Shown here one piece after another: positions 17,820 to 48,519 of a stretch of DNA of 52,316 bases. Position 1 is the stretch's first letter. Each line of letters begins with the position of its first letter. The notes below the pieces were generated by a model. That model made no database searches, was not told the DNA's origin, and was given only the letters and a program-made list of their open reading frames with translations. The DNA comes from Synechococcus sp. (GTDB lineage: Bacteria; Cyanobacteriota; Cyanobacteriia; Thermostichales; PCC-7336): NCBI GenBank assembly GCA_051439425.1, contig JBFRWD010000005.1, forward strand, positions 1-52,316. The letters are read 5' to 3'. Position numbers and translations under genes: made by a program.

Positions 17820-18953
17820 ATGAGCAACATTCTCACCACCGATCGATTCGATCTTGAAGTCCTACGACTAGTCAATATCGAGCGAGCGAAGCTGGGTCGC
17901 AGCGCGCTAACGTTAAGCCAAAAACTTGATGCTGCTGCCGATCTCCATTCAGAAGATATGGCTACAAACGGGTATTTCTCGCACACAGGACAAGATAACT
18001 CCAACGTTGGTACTCGCATTTTTCGAGCTGGATACACCCGTTACCGAACTTGGGGAGAGAATATTGCAGTCGGATATCGTAGCGCGGCATCTGTGGTTCA
18101 AGGCTGGATGAACAGTGAGGGCCATCGAAGAAACATTCTGAATGGCAGCTTTACCCACATGGGATTGGGGACAGTAGCCAATGACTTTGGAAGACTCTAT
18201 TGGACACAAGTGTTTGCGGCTGGCGATCCCGATCCTGGAGTGTATGTCCCGCAAACCAACGGGGCGAACAATTCTCCTCCCGCCAATCCTCAAAACAGTC
18301 CCTCTCCAATTCCATCGGGTACCTCTGGTCGCGACACCCTAACGGGGTCGTCCAGGGGCGACAAGCTTAGCGGGCTAGGGGGAAACGATCGCCTCAATGG
18401 ATTGGGCGGCAATGATACTCTTCTCGGTGGTTCCGGCAACGATACAGTGCTGGGAGGTTCTGGCAACGACCGCTTGATTGGGGGCAGTGGTAACGATCGG
18501 TTAAGCGCTCAGTCGGGTAACGACACTCTCTCGGGAGGTTCGGGCCGAGACACCCTAACCGGAGGGGGAGGCTCGGATCGCCTGAGTGGCAACGACCAAA
18601 ACGATGTTCTCAAGGGCCAGTCTGGTAACGATACCTTGCTTGGCGGTACGGGCAACGATCTGATCCGGGGTGGTAAAGGTAACGACGTTCTCGATGGGCA
18701 GCAAGGGCAAGACACCTTAATTGGTGGCACCGGACGCGACCGGTTTAAGCTGAGGCAAAATAGCGGTCTGGATTTGATTCAAGATTTTGAGAATGGAAAA
18801 GACAGCATTCAACTCACGGGTGGGCTGACGTTCAGCGGTATCAGCCTGCGTCAAAGCGGCCGCAACGTCAGCATTTTTGATGCGAATAACAACCAAGTTG
18901 CAGTGGTCGCCAACACGAATCTGAACCAACTCAATGCAGCAGATTTCGTATAG
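17820..18953 (+). CDS. CAP (SCP/Tpx-1/PR-1) domain protein with RTX Ca-binding repeats
   Basis: VLRLVNIER, HSEDMA..GYFSH, GENIAVG, WMNSEGHRRNIL, YWTQVF; many GGxGNDxL nonapeptides; T1SS-like C-terminus. Confidence 0.9.
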   Translation: MSNILTTDRFDLEVLRLVNIERAKLGRSALTLSQKLDAAADLHSEDMATNGYFSHTGQDNSNVGTRIFRAGYTRYRTWGENIAVGYRSAASVVQGWMNSEGHRRNILNGSFTHMGLGTVANDFGRLYWTQVFAAGDPDPGVYVPQTNGANNSPPANPQNSPSPIPSGTSGRDTLTGSSRGDKLSGLGGNDRLNGLGGNDTLLGGSGNDTVLGGSGNDRLIGGSGNDRLSAQSGNDTLSGGSGRDTLTGGGGSDRLSGNDQNDVLKGQSGNDTLLGGTGNDLIRGGKGNDVLDGQQGQDTLIGGTGRDRFKLRQNSGLDLIQDFENGKDSIQLTGGLTFSGISLRQSGRNVSIFDANNNQVAVVANTNLNQLNAADFV

Positions 18954-19008: not shown

Positions 19009-21684
19009 CTACCTCGACTCTTTTTGGGGGAATGTCTGTTGAAGAAAGGCAATCGCATCCTCTCTGGATTGCAAGAGGCCATCCAGCGTGGCGTCTCTTA
19101 TCGCTTGCAGCAGGCGCTTGAATTCGGGACCTGGTGAATACCCCAGCATTTTGAGATCGTGACCGTTGATGGGAGCCTTTTGCTGCCGCCAATGAGTGAG
19201 GTAGTGCCACAAATGCTTGCGCATCCAGGTTTGTTGGCTAGCTGCGATCGACACGATTCCGGCAACCGGAATCCGATCGCCCCATCGTGCCACATCGCTG
19301 GGGGAGGACTTTGAGGATATCTGGGCGTGCAACTGTTGCTGCCAGGCGCCAAAGTGTCTTAATCGCTGCAACCCTTCGTGGGGCCAATCCAGGTACTCTG
19401 CCATCTCTGCAGCCCTCTCGCATTGTAGGATCAGGCATTCTAAACGCAACTGCCAGATATCCCGCTGTTGCATCTCCGAATACTGGCGAGAGAAGCGGTG
19501 GGTCCATGCCCCGACTCTCCTGAGATGTTGAATGGATGTGGGGGTGAGCTCTAAATCGGGATGCAAATAGTGCAAGGCTTCCAGGCGATCGAGCAAGCGC
19601 AGCCCTTGGGGCCAGTTGGGAGTTTCCAACAAATAGTGAAACTCTTGCTTGAGGCGGGCACCCTGTTCGCGGGCTACCCCGGATACGGATTGACCTTTCA
19701 CCAAACGACTGGCGGTGAGGGCATACTCTTGCGTGCGATCTCCCAGTGCAAAGCCGAGCCGCACCGCAAACCGCACTGCTCGAATCGTGCGGGTGGGATC
19801 TTCCACAAAACTATTGGGATGCAATACCCGCAATGTTTGGCGATCGAGGTCTTCCAACCCTCCGAAGAAATCTAAAATTTCCCCCGCCTGTGGCCCGTTT
19901 AACCTCAGTGCCAGCGCATTGATGGTGAAATCTCTGCGGTATAGATCCTGCTGAATCGAGCTGGCCGATACTTGCGGGAGGGCGGCAGGGTAGGGATAAA
20001 ACTCCGTGCGGGCGGTGGCGATGTCAATCCACAATCCATCCGGCCAGATCAACGCTGCCGTCTGAAATTTGCCGTGAACCTCCAATCTGGCTTCGGGATA
20101 AACCTCCAATAGTTTTTGAGCTAGGCGCACCCCCCACCCCTCTGGCTCCGGTTCCTCGCTTCCAGTCGGATGACAGCCATCCACCACTAAATCGAGATCG
20201 TCAGTTGGACGGTCAAGCAATAAATCCCGCACGGTGCCCCCGACAACGTAAAGGTCGAGATTCAATGCATCGGCAGCTCTAGCCCCCTCTTGCAAAATGT
20301 CCCAGTAGCGCTCGGACAGCATTTGCTGCAGCTTCACCTGCAAGCGATCGACTACGACCTCTGGACGATGGGCGGGAGACAGATCGTGCATTTGCCGCAG
20401 CACATCCGTTCGGGTGACGATGCCGATGAGATTGCCGCTATCCAAGACCGGTAGACGACCAATATCTCGCTTCAGCATTAAGTATTGAATGTCGCGTAAG
20501 GAGGTTGAGGGCTGGATGTGATAGACAGGAGAGCTCATGTAACCCTTGACGGGGGCATGACCGAACCCGTGGTGCAGCGCCAGGTCGACGTCTCTGCGAG
20601 AAACTACCCCCACCAGTTCGTCCTGTGTATCCACCACCGATAGCCCCGAGTGGCCGTAGCGCAACAGTACCCTCTGAGCTTCGTCAATCGTTGTATCCGG
20701 GCGAATGGTGCGGACGGGGGAAGACATCAGTTCTGCTGCGACGATCGGGTGGGGAATGCGATCGCGCAGTAACTGGCGAATGTCGCGTGCCAGGGTCTCT
20801 AATTCTTGTGGTTCGCTAACTTTGATCGAGGCAGAGGCTGCCCGTGCATGACCGCCTCCACCGTAAAGTTTCATGATGGTTTGCAGTTGGGCAAAGTCGT
20901 GCTGAGCCCGCCCGATCAGGCTTGTACGCTTCCCTTGACAGGCGATGGTAACCAACACATCGATATCGGTCAGCTCCATCAACCGCTCTACAATCCCCGA
21001 CAGTCCTCGAATATAGTCGTCCTCTTGCAGCACCCACACCAAGACGCGATAGCCCAAGATATCTTCGGAGGTATTGGAGGCGGCCTCCAGACCACGAGCC
21101 AATAATTCTTGATTGTGGGGGGTGAGACCGCGATCGATGTAGGTGGATAAGACATCTAGATTGGCTCCTCGCTCCATTAGCCAGGCTAGTGCTCTAGCGT
21201 CTCGAGGCGAGCTATTGCCAAAGGTGAGCGAGCCAGTATCCACATGAATCCCCAGCGCCAGTGCCGTGACTTCAAATGGGCTCAGTTCTAGCTGCTGTTG
21301 CTGCAAGCGTTCCACCATCAGGGTGGATGTGGCTCCGACGGGCTCCACGCACCACAGGTCAGTGTCGTAATCGGGTGATCGCGGATTGGGGTGGTGGTCG
21401 TAGACATGAACCACTACATCCTCTCGGTACACCCACGCCGAGGCAGACCCAAATCGCTGCGGAGACTGGGCATCAACTAAGATAATTCGCTGCAAAGATT
21501 GCTCGTCCACCGATCGCTGTTCTACTAGTGGATAGGCATCGCGGTGCAGAGCCAAGAAGTCTTTCACGGTGCGATGAGCCCCTCCCGTCAGCACAATGCG
21601 TGCACCTGGATACAGCCGAGCAGCTCCGACTGCTGCCCCCAGCGCATCGAAGTCAGCAGTTTCGTGACAGAGAATAACGTCCAT
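19009..21684 (-). CDS. DHH-DHHA1-CBS-nucleotidyltransferase fusion (A-adding tRNA nucleotidyltransferase type)
   Basis: CH.TADFDALGA, YDHH, GGGHARAAS, two CBS domains, VGGTVRDLLL..DLDLVV, DLYRRDFTINALA, EDPTR; start moved to ATG 21684. Confidence 0.9.
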   Translation of the reverse strand: MDVILCHETADFDALGAAVGAARLYPGARIVLTGGAHRTVKDFLALHRDAYPLVEQRSVDEQSLQRIILVDAQSPQRFGSASAWVYREDVVVHVYDHHPNPRSPDYDTDLWCVEPVGATSTLMVERLQQQQLELSPFEVTALALGIHVDTGSLTFGNSSPRDARALAWLMERGANLDVLSTYIDRGLTPHNQELLARGLEAASNTSEDILGYRVLVWVLQEDDYIRGLSGIVERLMELTDIDVLVTIACQGKRTSLIGRAQHDFAQLQTIMKLYGGGGHARAASASIKVSEPQELETLARDIRQLLRDRIPHPIVAAELMSSPVRTIRPDTTIDEAQRVLLRYGHSGLSVVDTQDELVGVVSRRDVDLALHHGFGHAPVKGYMSSPVYHIQPSTSLRDIQYLMLKRDIGRLPVLDSGNLIGIVTRTDVLRQMHDLSPAHRPEVVVDRLQVKLQQMLSERYWDILQEGARAADALNLDLYVVGGTVRDLLLDRPTDDLDLVVDGCHPTGSEEPEPEGWGVRLAQKLLEVYPEARLEVHGKFQTAALIWPDGLWIDIATARTEFYPYPAALPQVSASSIQQDLYRRDFTINALALRLNGPQAGEILDFFGGLEDLDRQTLRVLHPNSFVEDPTRTIRAVRFAVRLGFALGDRTQEYALTASRLVKGQSVSGVAREQGARLKQEFHYLLETPNWPQGLRLLDRLEALHYLHPDLELTPTSIQHLRRVGAWTHRFSRQYSEMQQRDIWQLRLECLILQCERAAEMAEYLDWPHEGLQRLRHFGAWQQQLHAQISSKSSPSDVARWGDRIPVAGIVSIAASQQTWMRKHLWHYLTHWRQQKAPINGHDLKMLGYSPGPEFKRLLQAIRDATLDGLLQSREDAIAFLQQTFPQKESR

Positions 21685-21870
21685 AGATGAGTGCGATCGC
21701 GCGAAGCAGCTACCTAGATTCTTGCACTTGCTATTGTGGGGCGAGGCAATCTTGTTGGCATCGCTCGTGAACGGACTTGAATGACTGCCAAAGTTCGCGC
21801 CCTGCTTCTGGGAAACAGGGCGCGAACTTTGGAGAGGAAGTATGAACAAGTTTGAGTAGAGGTCGGACGG

Positions 21871-22242
21871 TTAATATACTCCAGACTCGCTGCTGGAAGA
21901 GTTGGCTTCTACTTTTTGCAGGAACTCTGGCCGGAAGTTTTTGTTGTAGACTCCAGACTCGCTACTGGAGGAGTTAGCGTCTACTTTTTGTAAGAACTCG
22001 GGGCGGAAATTTTTGTTGTAAACGCCGTTTTCGCTGCTGGCAGAGTTGGCGTCTACTTTTTGTAGGAAGTCAGGGCGGAAGTTCTTTCGCTCGACTCCAG
22101 ACTTGCTACTGCTGCCACGCTCTTCCAGACGGTCTAACGTTTCCAGAATTGATGCGTTAGCGGGAGCAGGAGATGCGGCTGCTACAACGGCAACGGCGGC
22201 AATTGCAAAGGTTGCTGCAGAGAGAGTTTTGAAAGCATTCAT
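21871..22242 (-). CDS. Secreted tandem-repeat polypeptide (signal peptide plus 3 conserved and 1 degenerate 24-aa units); putative multi-cassette propeptide
   Basis: Signal MNAFKTLSAATFAIAAVAVVAAASPAPANA; units xKNFRP(D/E)FLQKV(D/E)ANSxSSExGVY; AGGA RBS upstream; repeats differ almost only at synonymous sites. Confidence 0.85.
   Translation of the reverse strand: MNAFKTLSAATFAIAAVAVVAAASPAPANASILETLDRLEERGSSSKSGVERKNFRPDFLQKVDANSASSENGVYNKNFRPEFLQKVDANSSSSESGVYNKNFRPEFLQKVEANSSSSESGVY
21874..22089 (-). repeat. Three 72-bp coding tandem repeats
   Basis: Units 21874-21945, 21946-22017 and 22018-22089, read directly from the sequence. Confidence 0.9.
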
Positions 22243-22828
22243 GGCAGTATGTCCTGAGGGTTAGGAGGAATTGGTGTGGAGACGAAAAGTGCGAATCACT
22301 GCTTTTCCTGACACCATTTAGTAAACGTGGGGCAACTGAGACGCTCCCGAAGTACTTCCCTGCATTCGATAAAGGCTCGGTTAGCGATCGCTTCGGTGCC
22401 TCTCAGCTGTCTCTCAGTCCATAAATCTCCTTTGCTCTGTCAAGAGAATTTGAGATGGCCCGATCGCTCAACCCCCCTGCCTAGAGGCAGAGCATTGGGG
22501 AAATCAACAGATCCAGGACATGTTGGCCAAAACCTTGGCAAAGACGATCGGTGATAAAGATTGCCCGTAGTAGAGCTACATCAAGCTGATTCGCATGTAG
22601 GTTAGGGGTATTGTGATGTTGGTTTCGGCCTCAAACGTTCTCCCCCAGAATGGTCTGTTCCATTTCACTTGCGTGCGCGTAATTCCTCCATTCGGGCTGA
22701 AGGTATGAAGCGGCGAATGGTAATTTCCGTTCAAGGGAAACCTTGACCTAGTCACACCTATTTCAATCGTCTAGATACCGGCTCGATACCTGTTTGATTC
22801 ACGCTGTTTCGTACCTCATTGACGTACC

Positions 22829-25320: not shown

Positions 25321-25377
25321 CTAACCAACTTCTTTCGTTAACCGACTTGTTTAGTTAACCGACTTGTTTAGTTAACC
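25321..25377. repeat. 17-bp tandem repeat (2 perfect units plus partial and degenerate units)
   Basis: GTTAACCGACTTGTTTA at 25337-25353 and 25354-25370, GTTAACC at 25371-25377; overlaps the stop of the TauE gene. Confidence 0.8.
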
Positions 25378-26289: not shown

Positions 26290-26694
26290 TTATCCCATCA
26301 AGATGACCCGATCCAAGACATGAATGATGCCGTTGTCGGCTTCAATATCTGCTGCCACTACACCAGAGTTCTTCACTTCGAACCCATCTTCTGTGACATG
26401 GATTGGAATGACAGAGCCCTCAACCGAGGTAATGCTGTCTAACTTCACCAAGTCTGCCTGAGTGTATTTCCCGGCCGCCACATGAAAGGTGAGGATACGG
26501 GCGAGTTGAGGGATGTTTTGCACCAGAGTTTGTATGGTGCCAGGAGGCAACTGGGCAAAGGCTTCATCTGTGGGGGCAAACACCGTGAAGGGGCCGGGAC
26601 TTTTGAGCGTATCCACTAAGTCTGCAGCCTTGACTGCAGTGACCAGTGTTTCGAAGCCTTCAGTCCCTACAGCAATATCGACAATGTCTGCCAT
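26290..26694 (-). CDS. cupS: Fasciclin-domain protein CupS
   Basis: [25 protein letters not shown]; immediately downstream of cupA. Confidence 0.9.
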
Positions 26695-26735
26695 TGAATC
26701 AACTCGCGAATCAGAAGTGGTTTGGAAAAGAGGAG

Positions 26736-28046
26736 TTATCGATAGTCCTGGCGTTGGATATCCCGGAGGCGGGCTTCAGGACGCTTAAAGCGATCGAGCT
26801 GAGCCTCGAAAAACGCGCGATTTGCCTTCAGGTGCTCGGGGTTGGGGTCATCCAGCGGATAGAGCAGGGCCGTACGCAACGCCTGAATGACGGCTGAGGT
26901 AACGTTATACATCGATCGCTGGAAGGTAATTCCCAACTGAATCAACATGTCATCTTCGCCACGGCAGTGCTGTTTGTAGTAATCCACCAAGTACTGGGGT
27001 AAGAAGTGCAACATGTCTTGCATGAGCAATGTGGGAGGAATGCCAGCAGTTCCAACGGGAAAGACATCTGCGTACAAGATGCCGTAATGGAAGTCCTTTT
27101 GATCGTCGGGCACTTGACCGGCTTGGGCATTGTAAGACTTGGTGCCACGGAAGGGAGAGGTGCGGTAGAAAATGGCTTCTACGTAGGGCAATGCTGCTTC
27201 ATACAACCACATAAAACCCTTATCTTTTGGAATAATTTCGTAGCACTCGCCGCGAATGTAGACGTGGTGGTAGATGGGGCGTCCGGCGATCGCGAAAATG
27301 CCGTTCACCAAAAAGTCCATCGCATCCGATACGGTCTTGAACGCCCCTTCGTCGTACAAATCGGACATTTCGAAAAATACGGGAGCCATCACTTCCCAAA
27401 AGAGCCCCAAGTTGGAGTAGTAGGACATCTGCCGTACTTGCTCCAGGAACATGTCGGGGAACAGCTTGTATAGCCCCAACATGACCGGGTTGCCTTTGAA
27501 ATAGGCTTTGATAGCGCGATCGGCGTTGGCCTTATATTCCTCGGTGTCGAGATAGACGTCGAACTTATTCACCGGCGCGTACATATTCCGGTGCCAGAGC
27601 ATCGCTCGCATGCAGGCTTCGGCAAATTCCATATTGACGCGATCGTGCATCAAGTGGTGGAACAGCTTGGGTACCTTCTGCTTCAGTTCCCCCTGCTGCA
27701 TAAAGTCAATCAGCTCGGGATGGGCTGTGGCCTGCCCCCGCCAAATCTGCAGATCGGCGTCCTCGCCCGCATAGTGATTGGGCAGATCTAGATACTCCTT
27801 GGGCAAGAAGTATTTGAACGCAGGCAACGGATTGAGAAAGACCCGCTCGGCGATATAAAGCAAGTTGCGCCAGTAGAAATCCATCGGCACTGCATACGCC
27901 TTATAAATCCCGATGATTTGCATGAGATTTTCGGCGGATTCCGGCAACATCGAGCCGCCCGCTTCCAGACGATGAATGACCTCTGCAAACTCGTGGGTGG
28001 ACGGTGGTAGCTTGGTCTCTGATTTCGGAGAGGGGGCGGTCATCAT
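26736..28046 (-). CDS. cupA: CO2 hydration protein CupA (ChpY)
   Basis: [56 protein letters not shown]. Confidence 0.96.
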
Positions 28047-28109
28047 GGCAAGCAGGGGAAATAGGGCAAACAGATGTTAATCGGATGTTTGTTGTGAATA
28101 CGAGTGAGG

Positions 28110-29624
28110 TTAACTCAACGGTTGTTGGATCTGTGGGGTTTCGGTGATGAAAACCTGTTCGGTTTTCAGGTTCGGTATGGCCGCCACCATGGCGTCGGTA
28201 GTCGGCTCCGTCCAGCGCACCAGCCACGTGGGTTGAATGCCGAAGAACACGATTGAGATGGCCAAGATAAATGCAGGTACCCGCTCTCTCCATTCCACTT
28301 TGGGAAAGTAGGCGATCGCGTTGTCCAATCGACCGAAGCAAGTGCGGTTCAGCAAGATGATGAAATACACCGTTGTCAGACCGCTACCCAACACACATAA
28401 CAGTGTCTGAAGTGGGAAGGCTTGGTAGCTGCCTTGGAAGACTAAAAATTCGGCAATAAATCCAGCCAAACCGGGGATACCCGCACTGGCCATACCGCTG
28501 AGCACCAGCAGGGCGCTAATCATCGGCAAGCCGCGGATCGGATTCATCAATCCATTCAACACATCCAGCTCTCGGGTGCCCACCTTGGCTTCGATAACAC
28601 CCACCAAGTGGAATAGAATGGCCAGAATCAATCCATGAGCTACCATCTGAGCTACTGCGCCAACTAAGCTCAGCGAGGTGAGGGCCGCGCCCCCCAAGAG
28701 GATGTAACCCATGTGGCCAATGGAGCTATAGGCCACCATGCGTTTGATATCTTTCTGAGCGATCGCCACAATCGCGCCATAGAGTACGCTAATGGTTGCC
28801 CAAGTGGCCATCCCCGGAGCCAGTGTTGCCCATGCTTCGGGAAATAATCCCAACCCAAAGCGGAAAATACCGTACACTCCCAACTTCGCCAGCACTCCCC
28901 CCAGCATGATCGCCACTGGGGCAGATGCCGCAACATACGTATCGGGCAGCCAGGTGTGCAAGGGAACCAGTGGAATTTTGATGCCGAAGCCAACCAGCAA
29001 GACACCCAACAGCAGGATTTGTAGACCTAGCGGAAGAGCCTGACCTGCGAAAGACTCGTAAGCAAAGCTGGTGGACCCCGTTGCCCAAACCAGCCCCAAG
29101 AATGCCGCCAGAATCAGAACGCCGGACAGCGCCGTGTACAGCAAGAATTTGGTCGCTGCGTAGTTAGAACCCTTCCCGCCCCAAATGGAAATCAGTAGGA
29201 AGAACGGAATCAGTTCCACTTCGTAGAACAAGAAAAACAGCAGCAGATTTTGGGTCAAGAACGCTCCGGCTACTGCTCCGCTCACCAGCAGCATGAGAGC
29301 GTAGAACAAGCGTGGCCGCTCGACGTTTTCATTACTGCTGTAGATGGCAATCCAGGTGAGGAAACTGTTGAGGACGAGTAGGGGCATCGAGAGGCCATCC
29401 ACCCCCAAGCTGTAATCCAACCCCAATGGTGAAATCCAGGGTAGATATTCAGTGAACTGCAATAGAGGACTGCGGAAGTCAAATTGACTGGTCAGCCACA
29501 GCGACCACAGCAAACCGAGACCGCTGAGGACTAAAGATGCAAGCTTGAGCCGCTTGAGAGGGATGGGCAGTAGCCCGATGAAGATCGCCCCAAAGACAGG
29601 CAACCAAATGAGTGTGCTGAGCAT
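28110..29624 (-). CDS. ndhD3: NDH-1 subunit NdhD3 (inducible CO2 uptake)
   Basis: NuoM-type: KIPLVPLHTWLPD, KRMVAYSSIGHMG, LNGLMNPIRGLP; position in the cup operon. Confidence 0.93.
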   Translation of the reverse strand: MLSTLIWLPVFGAIFIGLLPIPLKRLKLASLVLSGLGLLWSLWLTSQFDFRSPLLQFTEYLPWISPLGLDYSLGVDGLSMPLLVLNSFLTWIAIYSSNENVERPRLFYALMLLVSGAVAGAFLTQNLLLFFLFYEVELIPFFLLISIWGGKGSNYAATKFLLYTALSGVLILAAFLGLVWATGSTSFAYESFAGQALPLGLQILLLGVLLVGFGIKIPLVPLHTWLPDTYVAASAPVAIMLGGVLAKLGVYGIFRFGLGLFPEAWATLAPGMATWATISVLYGAIVAIAQKDIKRMVAYSSIGHMGYILLGGAALTSLSLVGAVAQMVAHGLILAILFHLVGVIEAKVGTRELDVLNGLMNPIRGLPMISALLVLSGMASAGIPGLAGFIAEFLVFQGSYQAFPLQTLLCVLGSGLTTVYFIILLNRTCFGRLDNAIAYFPKVEWRERVPAFILAISIVFFGIQPTWLVRWTEPTTDAMVAAIPNLKTEQVFITETPQIQQPLS

Positions 29625-29633
29625 AGAACGGGG

Positions 29634-31487
29634 TTAGGAAAACAGGAATTGAAGAATGGTTTGCCAGTAAAACGCTACGGCGATGGCAATGCTACTCAAG
29701 GCAATGGTCAAGATATAAAACTGACTTTGGCCGCTATTACCGTATTTGAGAGTTTCTCCACCAACTAGCGAGACGAGGCCTACCAGGTTAACGGCTCCGT
29801 CAATGATGTAGCGATCGAACCAGTCGGTGATGCGCGAGGCCCAATCGACACCAAACACAATGCTGGAGCGATAGAGCTGGGGGGTGTAAAGGTCGTAGGA
29901 GAAGAATTTCTGTACGCCTGGTAATGGGAAGCGAATGGGTTTGGGAACGGATTGACCGATGTAGAGCACTCCCCCTACTGCGCCCCCCAATAGACTGGAC
30001 GCTACCAGCAGACTTGCGACCTGAGTGTTGAAGTGGGCCCAATCGGGCAGCAACGACAGGCTTTGAAGAATCAGGGGCAGGTGTAGGGTGAAGCCCATCA
30101 GCACCATCATCGGTAGCGTAATTAGCCAGAAATTTTCGGGAGAACGCTCGGTCATTTTGCTGGGAGACCCCGCAAAAATTAGCCCGAACTCGCGCACCAT
30201 ACTGAATGCTGTAAACCCATTGACCAGTAGCAACATGCCAACCAACCAGGGGTAATCTGCCCACAGACCATCGGCTAGCTTCAACATGGCCCAGAATCCC
30301 CCCAGTGGCGGTAGACCTACCAATCCGGCGATTCCGACTAAGCAGCACAGCCCGGAAATGGGGCGGCGGCCCCACAACCCACCCATCTGCCTCAGGTCTT
30401 GGGTAATGGTGTTGAGAATGACAGAGCCCGTGCTCATGATCAGTAACCCCTGAGCCAGTGCATGACTCAGAATCAGCATTAGAGCCGCCTCCAGTTGTTG
30501 GGTACCAACGGAAACGAAGATGAGGCCCATATAGACGCTCACAGTGTAGGAGAGCGATCGCTTGATATCCACTTGGGCCATGGAAATCAACGAACCGGCG
30601 ATCGCCGTGGTGGCACCGATGGCAATCATGGTAGTCATGACCGTTGGTGACAGTGACAGAACGGGCTCTAGCTTAATGAGCACCCAAGCACCGGTTGCCA
30701 CTACTACCGAATTTCGCAGAATGGTGCTGGGTACCGGTCCTTCCATCGCCTCATCCAGCCATAAATGCAGTGGCAACTGAGCGCACTTGCCCATCGGGCC
30801 TGCCATCAATCCCAATCCCACTAGAGTGGCGACTGTCGGAGACACCTCGGCAGTTGTTGCCCAGTCTGCCAATTCACTAAAGTTCCAAGTACCCGCCAGA
30901 GGATAAAGAGCTAATACTCCCATTAAAAGGAACAAGTCGCCGACCCGCTTCGTTAGGAACGCATCCCGCGCTCCCGATACGACCAGCGACTGGTTCAACC
31001 AGAATCCCACCAGCAAATAGGTTCCTAAGGTGAGTACTTCTAGCAGGATGTAGCTGAAGAATAGCGAGTCACACAGAATTAATCCGCACAAGCCGGCCTC
31101 GAATAGCGAGAGAAAGGCAAAAAAGCGAGCCCATCCCCAGTCCATTTCTAAGTAGCCGACGGCGTAGATCTGAGCGAGAAAATTCATCCCTGTGACCAGG
31201 GTTGTTGCTCCAACGGCTAGAGCAGATATTTCGATAGGAATGGTTAAATCTAAGCCAGCCACTTGGAGCCAGGTAAAATCCAAATGGATCGCAGGTTGCT
31301 GCCACACGGCGGGAAATGCCAATGTCCCGTGAAGCAAGGCGAGCAAGGTTGTGAACAGGTTTACGTATCCGGCAGGACGGGGACCGGTCCGGCGAATGAT
31401 GCCGGGAGACCAGAACACTGTCAGCATCATCCCGATCAAGGGATAGCAGGGCACCAGCCAAAAGTTATTCGCGAAAAATTGCACCAT
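29634..31487 (-). CDS. ndhF3: NDH-1 subunit NdhF3
   Basis: RTGPRPAGYVN, YLEMDWGWARFF, KCAQLPLHLWLDEAMEGP; first gene of the cupA operon. Confidence 0.95.
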   Translation of the reverse strand: MVQFFANNFWLVPCYPLIGMMLTVFWSPGIIRRTGPRPAGYVNLFTTLLALLHGTLAFPAVWQQPAIHLDFTWLQVAGLDLTIPIEISALAVGATTLVTGMNFLAQIYAVGYLEMDWGWARFFAFLSLFEAGLCGLILCDSLFFSYILLEVLTLGTYLLVGFWLNQSLVVSGARDAFLTKRVGDLFLLMGVLALYPLAGTWNFSELADWATTAEVSPTVATLVGLGLMAGPMGKCAQLPLHLWLDEAMEGPVPSTILRNSVVVATGAWVLIKLEPVLSLSPTVMTTMIAIGATTAIAGSLISMAQVDIKRSLSYTVSVYMGLIFVSVGTQQLEAALMLILSHALAQGLLIMSTGSVILNTITQDLRQMGGLWGRRPISGLCCLVGIAGLVGLPPLGGFWAMLKLADGLWADYPWLVGMLLLVNGFTAFSMVREFGLIFAGSPSKMTERSPENFWLITLPMMVLMGFTLHLPLILQSLSLLPDWAHFNTQVASLLVASSLLGGAVGGVLYIGQSVPKPIRFPLPGVQKFFSYDLYTPQLYRSSIVFGVDWASRITDWFDRYIIDGAVNLVGLVSLVGGETLKYGNSGQSQFYILTIALSSIAIAVAFYWQTILQFLFS

Positions 31488-46443: not shown

Positions 46444-48519
46444 TTAAACGTTTCCTAAGAAGGTGATGTTGACGGTTGCAGTATCGAATCCGCCGTTGCC
46501 ATCCGAAATGGTGTAGGTGAAGGAATCGGGGTCCCCATCGCCGAAGAAGTTGGTGTTGGTGTATTCTAGGGTGCCTCGACCGTTATTCGCTACGGAGCCA
46601 AACGTAGGTTGGGTAAAAGAATCGATAGAGATACTGTCCCCATCCGGGTCTGAGTCATTGCCCAAAATATTGATAGGGATTGGGATGAATGGTGGAGGAC
46701 CAAGGACAGTGTCATCCACCGCATCAGGAGCATTGTTGGCAGAGTTAACGGTGATATTGACGTTAGCAGTACTGGTACCGCCATTGCCATCAGAAATGCT
46801 GTATTCGAAGCTATCAGTACCGTTGAAGTTGGCATTGGGAGTGTAGGTAAAGGTCCCGTTGGTGTTGAGGGAGAGGATTCCGTTACTGGGTCCACTGACA
46901 GGAGTGGTATCCACCGTGAGAGTGTCCCCTTCAGCGTCAGAATCAGGAGTGGAGCCACTGAGACTACCGTCTATGACGTTGCCCGTGAAGGCAGTGTCTT
47001 CGTTAGTCGTGAAGGAATCAGCAACTGCCGTGGGGGAATCGTTAACGGGGTTGATTGTGAAGATGAACGTACCGGTTGCAGCGCTGGCACCATCCTCGCC
47101 ACCATCCGACAGCTCAAACGTGAAACTATCTGTGTTTGTTTCACTACCGTTATGGACATATCGCACCACACCATTATCGATATCCGCTTGAGTAAAGTCT
47201 TGGATACCAGTACCCTCATTAGTGGTTAGCTCAACGCGTCCGTTGCTGGTCGCTCCCGTGATGGAATATAAGAGACCTGCACCACTGTCATCTGGATCTG
47301 CTCCATTTAGTTGAGTATTCAGAAGAATAAGAGAATCCGCTTCATCAAGAGTGGCTCTAGTATTGACTGCGACAGTGGGGGAATTGTTGACACCTGTGAA
47401 CGAAAGGGAGACAGTCCCGGTACTAGAGCCACCTACCTGGTCAGTGATGGTGTAGGTGAAGCTATCAACGCTACTTGCACCACTCGGCAGTGTGTCGAAT
47501 TGGCCATTGGTGTCGTAGGTAAACGTGCCATCACTGTTGACCGTGAGGATGGCCCCTGATTCTGGCAAGGTAACAGCATTATTGACGGAAGCATTACTCC
47601 CATTGATGCTGGTAACGATGAGGGGATCCCCATCAAAATCAAAATCAACGCCAGTACCGTTATCTGCTAAGACATCCCCCATAATGACGGCGTTCTCAAG
47701 CCCGCTCAGAAAGTCATTTTGGGCGTTGGGGGCAACGTTGGGCAGGATGAAATCTACACGAGTGATATTGGCTGCAGCTATGCCTCGTAAGATGGTCAGG
47801 ATCTGCCCATCATTGGGGTCTCCAGGCTTGTTGAGGGTAACGACGGTATTTCCAGACAGGTCGCTGATGTCGAGGTCGGCAAAGGTGATGCCACCACCGA
47901 TTTGAATAAGGTCTAAGCCATCTTCAAAGTTACGAATCTCGTCAGTGCCTTGTCCAGGCACAAAACTAAACACATCCCGACCGATACCGCCATCAAGAGT
48001 GTCGGTCCCCGTGCCGCCGGTTAGGGTGTCATCTCCGCTTCCCCCCAGCAGCCAATCATCCTCACTGTTGCCAGAAAGTTTGTCATTCCCCGAGCCCCCA
48101 TTTAGGGTGTCGATCCCCTTGCCTCCACTTAGGGTGTCGTTTCCGCTTCGCCCAGCAAGCCAATCATTATTACGGTTGCCATTTAGCTTGTCATTTCCTT
48201 GGCCTCCATTTAGGGTGTCGCTGCCCGTGCCTCCATCCAGGAGGTCGTTTCCGCTTCCCCCGATTAGCCAATCATTGTTACTGCCTCCATCCAGGAGGTC
48301 GTTTCCTCGGCCTCCTTTGAGGGTGTCTCTGCTGCTGCCTCCTTCTAGGGTGTCGGCACCCGATTCTCCGAGAACATAATCTGCACCGCTTGCGCCGAGG
48401 ACTCTGTCATTCCCCGCAGAGGCACTAATCGTATCGCTGCTTCCCAACCCTCTAATGAAATCGTTACTCGCAAAGCCGTTGAGAACGTCTGCGCGGGAAG
48501 TGCCGTTGATGTTGGCCAT
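46444..48519 (-). CDS. RTX-repeat surface protein with cadherin-like / Ig-like (tandem-95, CSPG-type) domains
   Basis: N-terminal GGxGNDxL repeats; NVAPNAQND, DSFTYTITD, FTQADIDNGVVRYVHNGSE, NFNGTDSFEYSISDGNGG. Confidence 0.88.
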   Translation of the reverse strand: MANINGTSRADVLNGFASNDFIRGLGSSDTISASAGNDRVLGASGADYVLGESGADTLEGGSSRDTLKGGRGNDLLDGGSNNDWLIGGSGNDLLDGGTGSDTLNGGQGNDKLNGNRNNDWLAGRSGNDTLSGGKGIDTLNGGSGNDKLSGNSEDDWLLGGSGDDTLTGGTGTDTLDGGIGRDVFSFVPGQGTDEIRNFEDGLDLIQIGGGITFADLDISDLSGNTVVTLNKPGDPNDGQILTILRGIAAANITRVDFILPNVAPNAQNDFLSGLENAVIMGDVLADNGTGVDFDFDGDPLIVTSINGSNASVNNAVTLPESGAILTVNSDGTFTYDTNGQFDTLPSGASSVDSFTYTITDQVGGSSTGTVSLSFTGVNNSPTVAVNTRATLDEADSLILLNTQLNGADPDDSGAGLLYSITGATSNGRVELTTNEGTGIQDFTQADIDNGVVRYVHNGSETNTDSFTFELSDGGEDGASAATGTFIFTINPVNDSPTAVADSFTTNEDTAFTGNVIDGSLSGSTPDSDAEGDTLTVDTTPVSGPSNGILSLNTNGTFTYTPNANFNGTDSFEYSISDGNGGTSTANVNITVNSANNAPDAVDDTVLGPPPFIPIPINILGNDSDPDGDSISIDSFTQPTFGSVANNGRGTLEYTNTNFFGDGDPDSFTYTISDGNGGFDTATVNITFLGNV

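Follow-up and report, generated by a model that had tools for sequence, protein, structure and literature searches.

Gene and repeat architecture

The DNA analysed here (the window) is a stretch of 52,316 nucleotides from a cyanobacterial genome, G000. Its reverse strand carries a small gene, P0001, with the following features:

21871..22242, minus strand: gene of the exported repeat protein P0001 (123 aa + stop codon), an open frame under purifying selection
22153..22242, minus strand: predicted Sec/SPase I signal peptide, residues 1-30, ending A-N-A, by pattern analysis
22090..22152, minus strand: first, older-type motif copy at the predicted mature N-terminus (helix 32-43 + Ser-rich cap)
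22018..22089, minus strand: 24-aa repeat unit 1, junction RK
21946..22017, minus strand: 24-aa repeat unit 2, junction NK
21874..21945, minus strand: 24-aa repeat unit 3, junction NK, its final residue abutting the stop codon
22319..22417, minus strand: conserved upstream DNA element, an inferred regulator-binding array or promoter (TGA(G/A) half-sites, 11-bp phasing)
21790..21830, minus strand: strong hairpin right behind the P0001 stop, a likely transcription terminator (fold -38.7 kcal/mol)

Judged by pattern, the first 30 residues combine a basic N-region with a hydrophobic core, and A-N-A precedes SILE. This n-h-c pattern with its A-x-A site supports the Sec signal proposed in a preliminary description, which read P0001 as a secreted precursor of several peptide copies. 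The signal-like residues are followed by SILETLDRLEERGSSSKSGVE, three 24-residue units and GVY-stop. Tandem Repeats Finder detected a period of 72 in the gene (3.2 copies, score 291), and the four motif copies are gapless and in register at residues 30, 54, 78 and 102. The first copy, previously called degenerate, is present but represents the motif in its older form and shares the register of the other copies. The repeat was also recognized correctly, but its division into a 22-aa core and a 2-aa linker is one of several possible cuts of an exact 24-aa tandem. The junction dipeptides RK, NK and NK are as originally listed.

We compared the locus with contigs from sequencing runs. Two contigs from run X1, which may be the source sample, were identical to the window over 21500-22039 and 22054-22700, and runs X2 and X4 contained diverged repeat units. 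With X1 contigs matching on either side of the repeat and diverged units seen in two further runs, an assembly artefact is excluded as the origin of the repeat. The P0001 gene is real and conserved. Inverted repeats like its downstream hairpin also sit 3' of paralogues; the hairpin at 21790..21830 was absent from the consensus terminator scan listing.

A gene for a CCA-adding-type enzyme lies downstream of P0001, and a divergent cyclase-FHA gene lies upstream. Conserved neighbours, which the preliminary description had proposed to look for, did not materialize: none was common across paralogues, and the window synteny, including the adenylate cyclase, recurred only at the orthologous locus of genome G001. 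In G001:C124 (L023:6916-10080), a shifted frame across the repeat gene stays open into the CCA-type enzyme gene. This is a mechanical 1055-aa ORF and carries a risk of mis-annotation.

The repeat unit is conserved at the peptide level

We recounted codon differences between the units of P0001. Between units 2 and 3 we counted 9 synonymous changes and a single non-synonymous one, in agreement with the earlier count. The values were 10 and 4 for units 1 and 2, and 8 and 5 for units 1 and 3. Over 46 units from nine intact genes, dN/dS was ~0.07-0.08, with dS near saturation. The suggestion that the peptide is what is conserved is supported. Residues K2, R5, F8, S19 and G22 of the unit were invariant in 46/46.

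The nine intact genes contain 3-7 units, and all nine terminate ESG[VLA]Y-stop; a variable unit number and a conserved C-terminal boundary had both been anticipated. Unit similarity was 0.77 within a gene, 0.77 between genes of one genome and 0.71 between genomes. Kin-specific signals would be expected to diversify between alleles, and units this homogeneous show nothing of the kind. The internal junctions (n = 37) were NK in 35 cases and SK in 2, and none was dibasic. RK was confined to the first junction, where five of the nine intact genes have it. Of the basic linker originally described, the junction Lys is upheld in 46/46 units.

The repeat subgroup in related genomes

G000 holds seven loci of this repeat subgroup and four divergent relatives. 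Its five intact genes together encode 26 units (C5, 3; C96 twice, 7 and 7; C136, 6; C142, 3). The copy at C46 (L019:6865-7240) has 3 units and a frameshift inside the signal peptide, and that at C108 (L020:1738-1977) lacks its 5' end; these two are either pseudogenes or assembly errors. We found two repeat-subgroup genes each in G001 (5 and 4 units) and G003 (5 and 6 units), and additional members at four metagenome loci. The subgroup was not found in G002, a complete genome of the same genus as G000 (E 0.01). Among database relatives, P0003 ends ESG[VLA]Y-stop and P0002 has another ending. Behind the orthologous genes at G000:C46 and G003:C11, and at no other locus, lies a TPR gene.

A motif common to a wider family

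A profile search with the unit detected further small proteins in G000 (C7, C34, C110 and C75) and family members in G001, G002, G003, G005 and G006. Database searches gave 23, 30 and 13 proteins. From the 23 matches we left out P0021, a partial coiled-coil repeat lacking a signal, and P0022 (2393 aa); three weak class-level matches were left out for similarity in the signal peptide only. Except for one of the omitted matches and one "uncharacterized membrane protein", the relatives with a named source were cyanobacterial hypothetical proteins; three two-copy members come from Synechococcus sp. PCC 7336. The family was not found in G004, which belongs to the same taxonomic family, nor among the best 12 or fewer candidates scored in each of 400 further genomes from the phylum, a search that could miss short distant motifs. 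As far as searched, the family was found only in one cyanobacterial family.

All 90 collected sequences have the motif I-(L/V)-x-R-L-x-x-(L/I)-x-x-R-G-(T/S)-x-x-(E/D)-(S/H/N)-G. It consists of an amphipathic helix and an S-S-E-(S/N)-G cap and is the sole part common to the whole family. Among 61 non-redundant complete members, the motif begins 1-3 residues past a small-x-Ala site in 60, and none has a lipobox or Tat motif. Relatives carry 1-3 motif copies linked by unrelated spacers, most members having a second copy at the C-terminus and three having a single copy with a two-Cys tail. The spacer is polar and ~30-35 residues long (often containing GVEVAS/GVWTAS) in some relatives and a Met-rich helical hairpin in others, and in the rest it is all but absent. 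Within the hairpin subfamily, spacers are 44-81% identical. A stop right behind the motif also occurs in two-copy relatives, in which exact repeats are lacking.

A midpoint-rooted tree built on the signal and first motif placed the repeat subgroup with relatives that have short spacers (support 97/85 and 97/83), as did a quick tree (support 84). From these sequences we infer that spacer loss followed by tandem copying gave the repeat subgroup, the order of events being tentative. The series runs from two-motif proteins to tandem arrays, with every step represented. A set belonging to the other genus is present in G005 (at least 9-11 matches, 2-3 copies each). Independent expansion in the two genera was not supported statistically (p-AU 0.141).

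Several family genes (L016, L017, L037, L051 and L106) adjoin transposase, resolvase or umuD/umuC-like genes, among others; some of these neighbours we take to be SOS-response peptidase-like. Such mobile-gene neighbours hint at a spread of the family with mobile DNA.

We found no match above the cut-off in Pfam or NCBIfam and no sequence relative in PDB. The best ESM Atlas scores (0.87 for P0001, 0.90 for a two-copy relative) fell in unnamed clusters and are leads only. No account of the family turned up in the open-access literature searched. These small exported cyanobacterial proteins are new to the libraries and open-access papers searched; their narrow range keeps their importance moderate at present.

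Predicted structure and composition

AlphaFold2 modelling of P0001 (17 sequences) gave four isolated helices (residues 32-43, 58-67, 82-91 and 106-115) with no packing and no beta-solenoid. Confidence was low (pLDDT 53.6, pTM 0.15) on a shallow alignment, which is no proof of disorder. The first-copy helix is strongly amphipathic (hydrophobic moment 0.62-0.65) and the repeat-unit helices are weakly so (0.31-0.33). Mature chains of the repeat subgroup (10 members) are hydrophilic and rich in Ser, Glu and Asn, with 0% Met, 0% Trp, 0.3% His and 0.1% Cys. Met content in the hairpin subfamily is 11%.

In the hairpin subfamily, the spacer alone folds confidently (hairpin pLDDT 83-89). A fold search returned generic hairpins (up to Z 9.9, rmsd 2.2, 79 aligned), and matches to CopM chains (DUF305/CopM-like fold) were weak (Foldseek E 1.2 and 2.1). 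A phasin-related model weakly matched two of 20 two-copy relatives (best E 2e-5).

An upstream element and a candidate regulon

The element upstream of P0001 extends over ~100 bp without gaps. It has TGA(G/A) at offsets 8, 19 and 30 and inverted copies at 40, 51 and 84, and it closes with TCTCAG-N8-CGTTTACTA. We observed the core, TCAG-N8-(C/T)(G/A)TT(T/A)A(C/A)T, in 22/37 upstream regions, including 10/10 of the repeat subgroup. Using a matrix trained only on genus g3, the seven G000 family genes with intact upstream DNA gave the top seven sites in that genome (scores 19-40). The eighth site was the region 5' of a Crp/Fnr-type gene (C7:4775-5389; score 1.8), and the maximum in a reversed-genome control was -3.4. 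Upstream scores of the Crp/Fnr-type gene in the genus's four genomes were 21, 19, 21 and 18, against a null maximum of 17 from 150 pieces of 3.4 kb; the G001 locus scanned spans 19 kb, so the score of 18 is weaker there.

A strict pattern matched twice in G002, nine times in G005, twice in G006 and once in G003; control matches were 0 in five genomes. One of the G002 sites lies 5' of a family gene and the other 5' of a Crp/Fnr-like gene. One G005 site precedes a VTT-domain gene and another has no clear gene. The gene for a VTT-domain membrane protein at L162:1501-2339 (G005:C87) shows a partial match to the element. We did not observe the element layout at 21 more distant Crp-type loci.

In G000 and G003 the Crp/Fnr-type gene is two genes upstream of the hairpin-type member, the intervening gene encoding an NblR-like response regulator; in G001 it is immediately upstream of this member. 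Conservation of the element across two genera and its presence 5' of the Crp/Fnr-type gene suggest a small putative regulon. The core is missing from 15/37 upstream regions and the strict pattern matched 0 times in G001, and both results count against a regulon. With a named candidate regulator, expression, processing and partner become directly testable.

Further observations concern this regulator and its element. Crp/Fnr gene, NblR-like regulator and Met-rich hairpin member form a conserved cluster at L028:3124-5389 (G000:C7), L120 and L025. At L141 and L144 (G067 and G043), distant Crp/Fnr homologues adjoin genes for small, Met-rich secreted proteins, one of which carries GDAMK repeats; a neighbour there is presumably an anti-sigma-like gene. 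A secreted fasciclin gene (G000:C6:2163-2870, L167) partially matches the element and scored 17, equal to the null maximum, the only one of 12 fasciclin loci to do so; this borderline score does not confirm it as a regulon member. A structured RNA was rejected as an explanation of the element (20 sequences gave z-scores of -1.9 to +1.2, and their consensus folded at -1.1 kcal/mol), and in Rfam the region gave matches only to the downstream hairpin, far below gathering scores. We take the 11-bp direct repeats to resemble the boxes of metal-responsive regulators (ManR, CopR, NrsR). By itself such a repeat is weakly specific, and a search of the open-access literature found nothing tying 11-bp repeats to these boxes.

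Intact protein or released peptides

We favour P0001 as an intact, multivalent, dose-selected predicted envelope protein over released peptides and over self-assembly or coating, and hold this reading with moderate confidence. The protein would be exported through Sec and stay in one piece. Its mature form would be a mostly unfolded chain bearing four short docking motifs, and these may bind or cross-link an envelope partner, several hands at once. The repeat subgroup would have lost the spacer, multiplied units and genes, and kept the unit nearly unchanged. The family genes would be switched on together with the Crp/Fnr-type regulator gene via the phased upstream element, which may define a small envelope-stress regulon. 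The presence of 26 near-identical units across five intact genes suggests a stoichiometric role that depends on dose, and the conserved, confidently predicted spacers of the hairpin relatives (44-81% identity; pLDDT 83-89) fit intact proteins. If the chain is not cleaved, selection for dose would be acting on a multivalent envelope protein of a new sort.

Some observations count against this reading. The motif lies 1-3 residues from the predicted mature N-terminus in 60/61 members, so a free N-terminus could matter. The invariant junction Lys and the stop at a unit boundary are what a precursor needs. The weak amphipathy of the repeat helices counts against multivalent binding, and passages of PMC5199041 indicate that gene and unit multiplication raise dose in true peptide precursors too.

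The main alternative, which we consider possible but unlikely, is that a periplasmic protease cuts the exported chain at each unit's invariant Lys and releases several 22-24-aa signal or effector peptides. These might feed back via the co-regulated Crp/Fnr-type factor. A cut after Lys would give an N-terminus at most one residue off the signal-peptidase register, all nine intact genes end at a unit boundary, and short-spacer relatives retain a Lys at about the same position. But Lys is conserved no more than R5, F8, S19 and G22, and a cut after it would leave Asn-Lys on the internal peptides and not on the last. No site is conserved family-wide. A dibasic pair stood just upstream of 7/89 detected internal motif copies in the family (the profile missed some weak copies), and outside the repeat subgroup K/R followed the motif in 12/37 cases, compared with a 47% background.

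The preliminary description likened the layout to yeast alpha-factor and Kex2-processed proteins. The definition of fungal KEPs calls for a signal, repeats, and KR, RR or KK between the repeats (PMC6339444). P0001 resembles them, alpha-factor included, in its signal, its three or more near-identical repeats and its gene and unit multiplication (PMC6339444; PMC7329392). Unlike KEPs, the P0001 family has no dibasic internal junctions (0/37), no kexin-type protease found in G000 and no common cut site, so the analogy fails. A kexin-type protease (S8 + P domain) was not found in G000, which is 96% complete; we detected three S8 matches and one protein with two P domains, on different contigs and in no case combined. 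At G000:C61:15443-17695, a 751-aa frame has a metalloprotease-like HESGH region and two proprotein-convertase P domains and lacks S8. No peptidase, transporter or receptor was linked to family genes among the neighbours examined (40/123 scanned with profiles, the rest read by eye).

Bacterial precedents bear on both sides. The Rap-Phr and NprR-NprX systems of Bacillus likewise have an exported small protein, intragenic repeats and paralogues, and Phr pre-peptides may hold repeated autoinducers, according to passages of PMC5199041. Phr peptides have 5-6 residues, a linked cognate receptor gene and diverging alleles (same source), whereas P0001-type units have 24 residues, are homogeneous and have no linked receptor. 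In Rap-Phr signalling the mature penta- or hexapeptide is released and then re-imported. PatX belongs to the PatX-PatP-HetR system of filamentous cyanobacteria; in Nostoc it is a Sec-exported small protein cut by PatP (PMC12756182). As a likeness to PatX, the motif of the P0001 family often contains R-G-(T/S). Unlike PatX, P0001 lacks HRGTGR/RGSGR, has RGSSS instead, and repeats its units. HetR (PF03574) was found in 0/6 lineage genomes (85-100% complete), with 4/4 controls positive.

The shared phased promoter element of the precursor genes and the Crp/Fnr-type gene would be the basis for a feedback loop on the peptide reading. That the unicellular lineage has its own multi-copy peptide signal, combining single-Lys cleavage with such a loop and independent of HetR/PatX and RRNPP, is somewhat less probable than cleavage as such. 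If peptides are released, unicellular cyanobacteria would have a peptide signal that passes between cells.

The favoured reading of P0001 as an intact envelope protein has parallels of its own. MrpX of Azospira is also a small exported protein that acts by dose within a small regulon (PMC4436054). Unlike MrpX-type Met-rich scavengers, repeat-subgroup mature chains have 0% Met, and only the hairpin subfamily is Met-rich. Since Met and Trp are absent and His and Cys very rare, the repeat-subgroup proteins are not oxidant or soft-metal sponges. Sticker-and-spacer linkers such as CsoS2 and EPYC1 are disordered proteins that use repeated short helices as binding hands. The P0001 family has no sequence link to MrpX, CsoS2 or EPYC1.

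Self-assembly of the units, or their use as a coat on membranes or minerals, is rather improbable; they would then form a sheath, matrix or surfactant layer with no specific protein partner. High copy number, a hydrophilic make-up rich in Ser, Glu and Asn, the amphipathic first helix and the weak phasin-related matches would all suit such a role. Against it, neither packing nor a beta-solenoid was predicted, relatives tolerate very different spacers, and the conserved specific cap suits recognition better than bulk coating.

A multi-core precursor of a modified peptide (RiPP) is very improbable. Multi-core cyanobacterial RiPP precursors have a leader peptide and adjacent modifying enzymes. P0001 shares the multi-core layout and has modifiable Ser, Asn, Glu, Lys and Tyr, and the GVEVAS spacer motif of relatives presumably recalls cyanobactin protease sites. 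But P0001 carries an export signal in place of a leader, no modifying enzyme was found beside any copy examined, and the conserved part is the repeat itself, in a subgroup that lacks the GVEVAS spacer. A neutral or selfish DNA repeat riding mobile elements has the least to recommend it: transposase, resolvase or umuDC-like genes are found close to several copies and 2/7 G000 copies are broken, but dN/dS is low and signal, motif, stop register and upstream element are preserved across two genera.

Other features of the window

A CAP-domain protein with RTX calcium-binding repeats is encoded at 17820-18953. A 17-bp tandem repeat (3.3 copies) lies at 25322-25377, in an intergenic region flanked by two convergent genes. 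The region 26290-31487 contains a fasciclin gene followed by further genes, which we take to resemble a CO2-uptake NDH-1 cluster. A second repeat array, with periods of 27/54/108 bp, is present near 48 kb (47999-48349).
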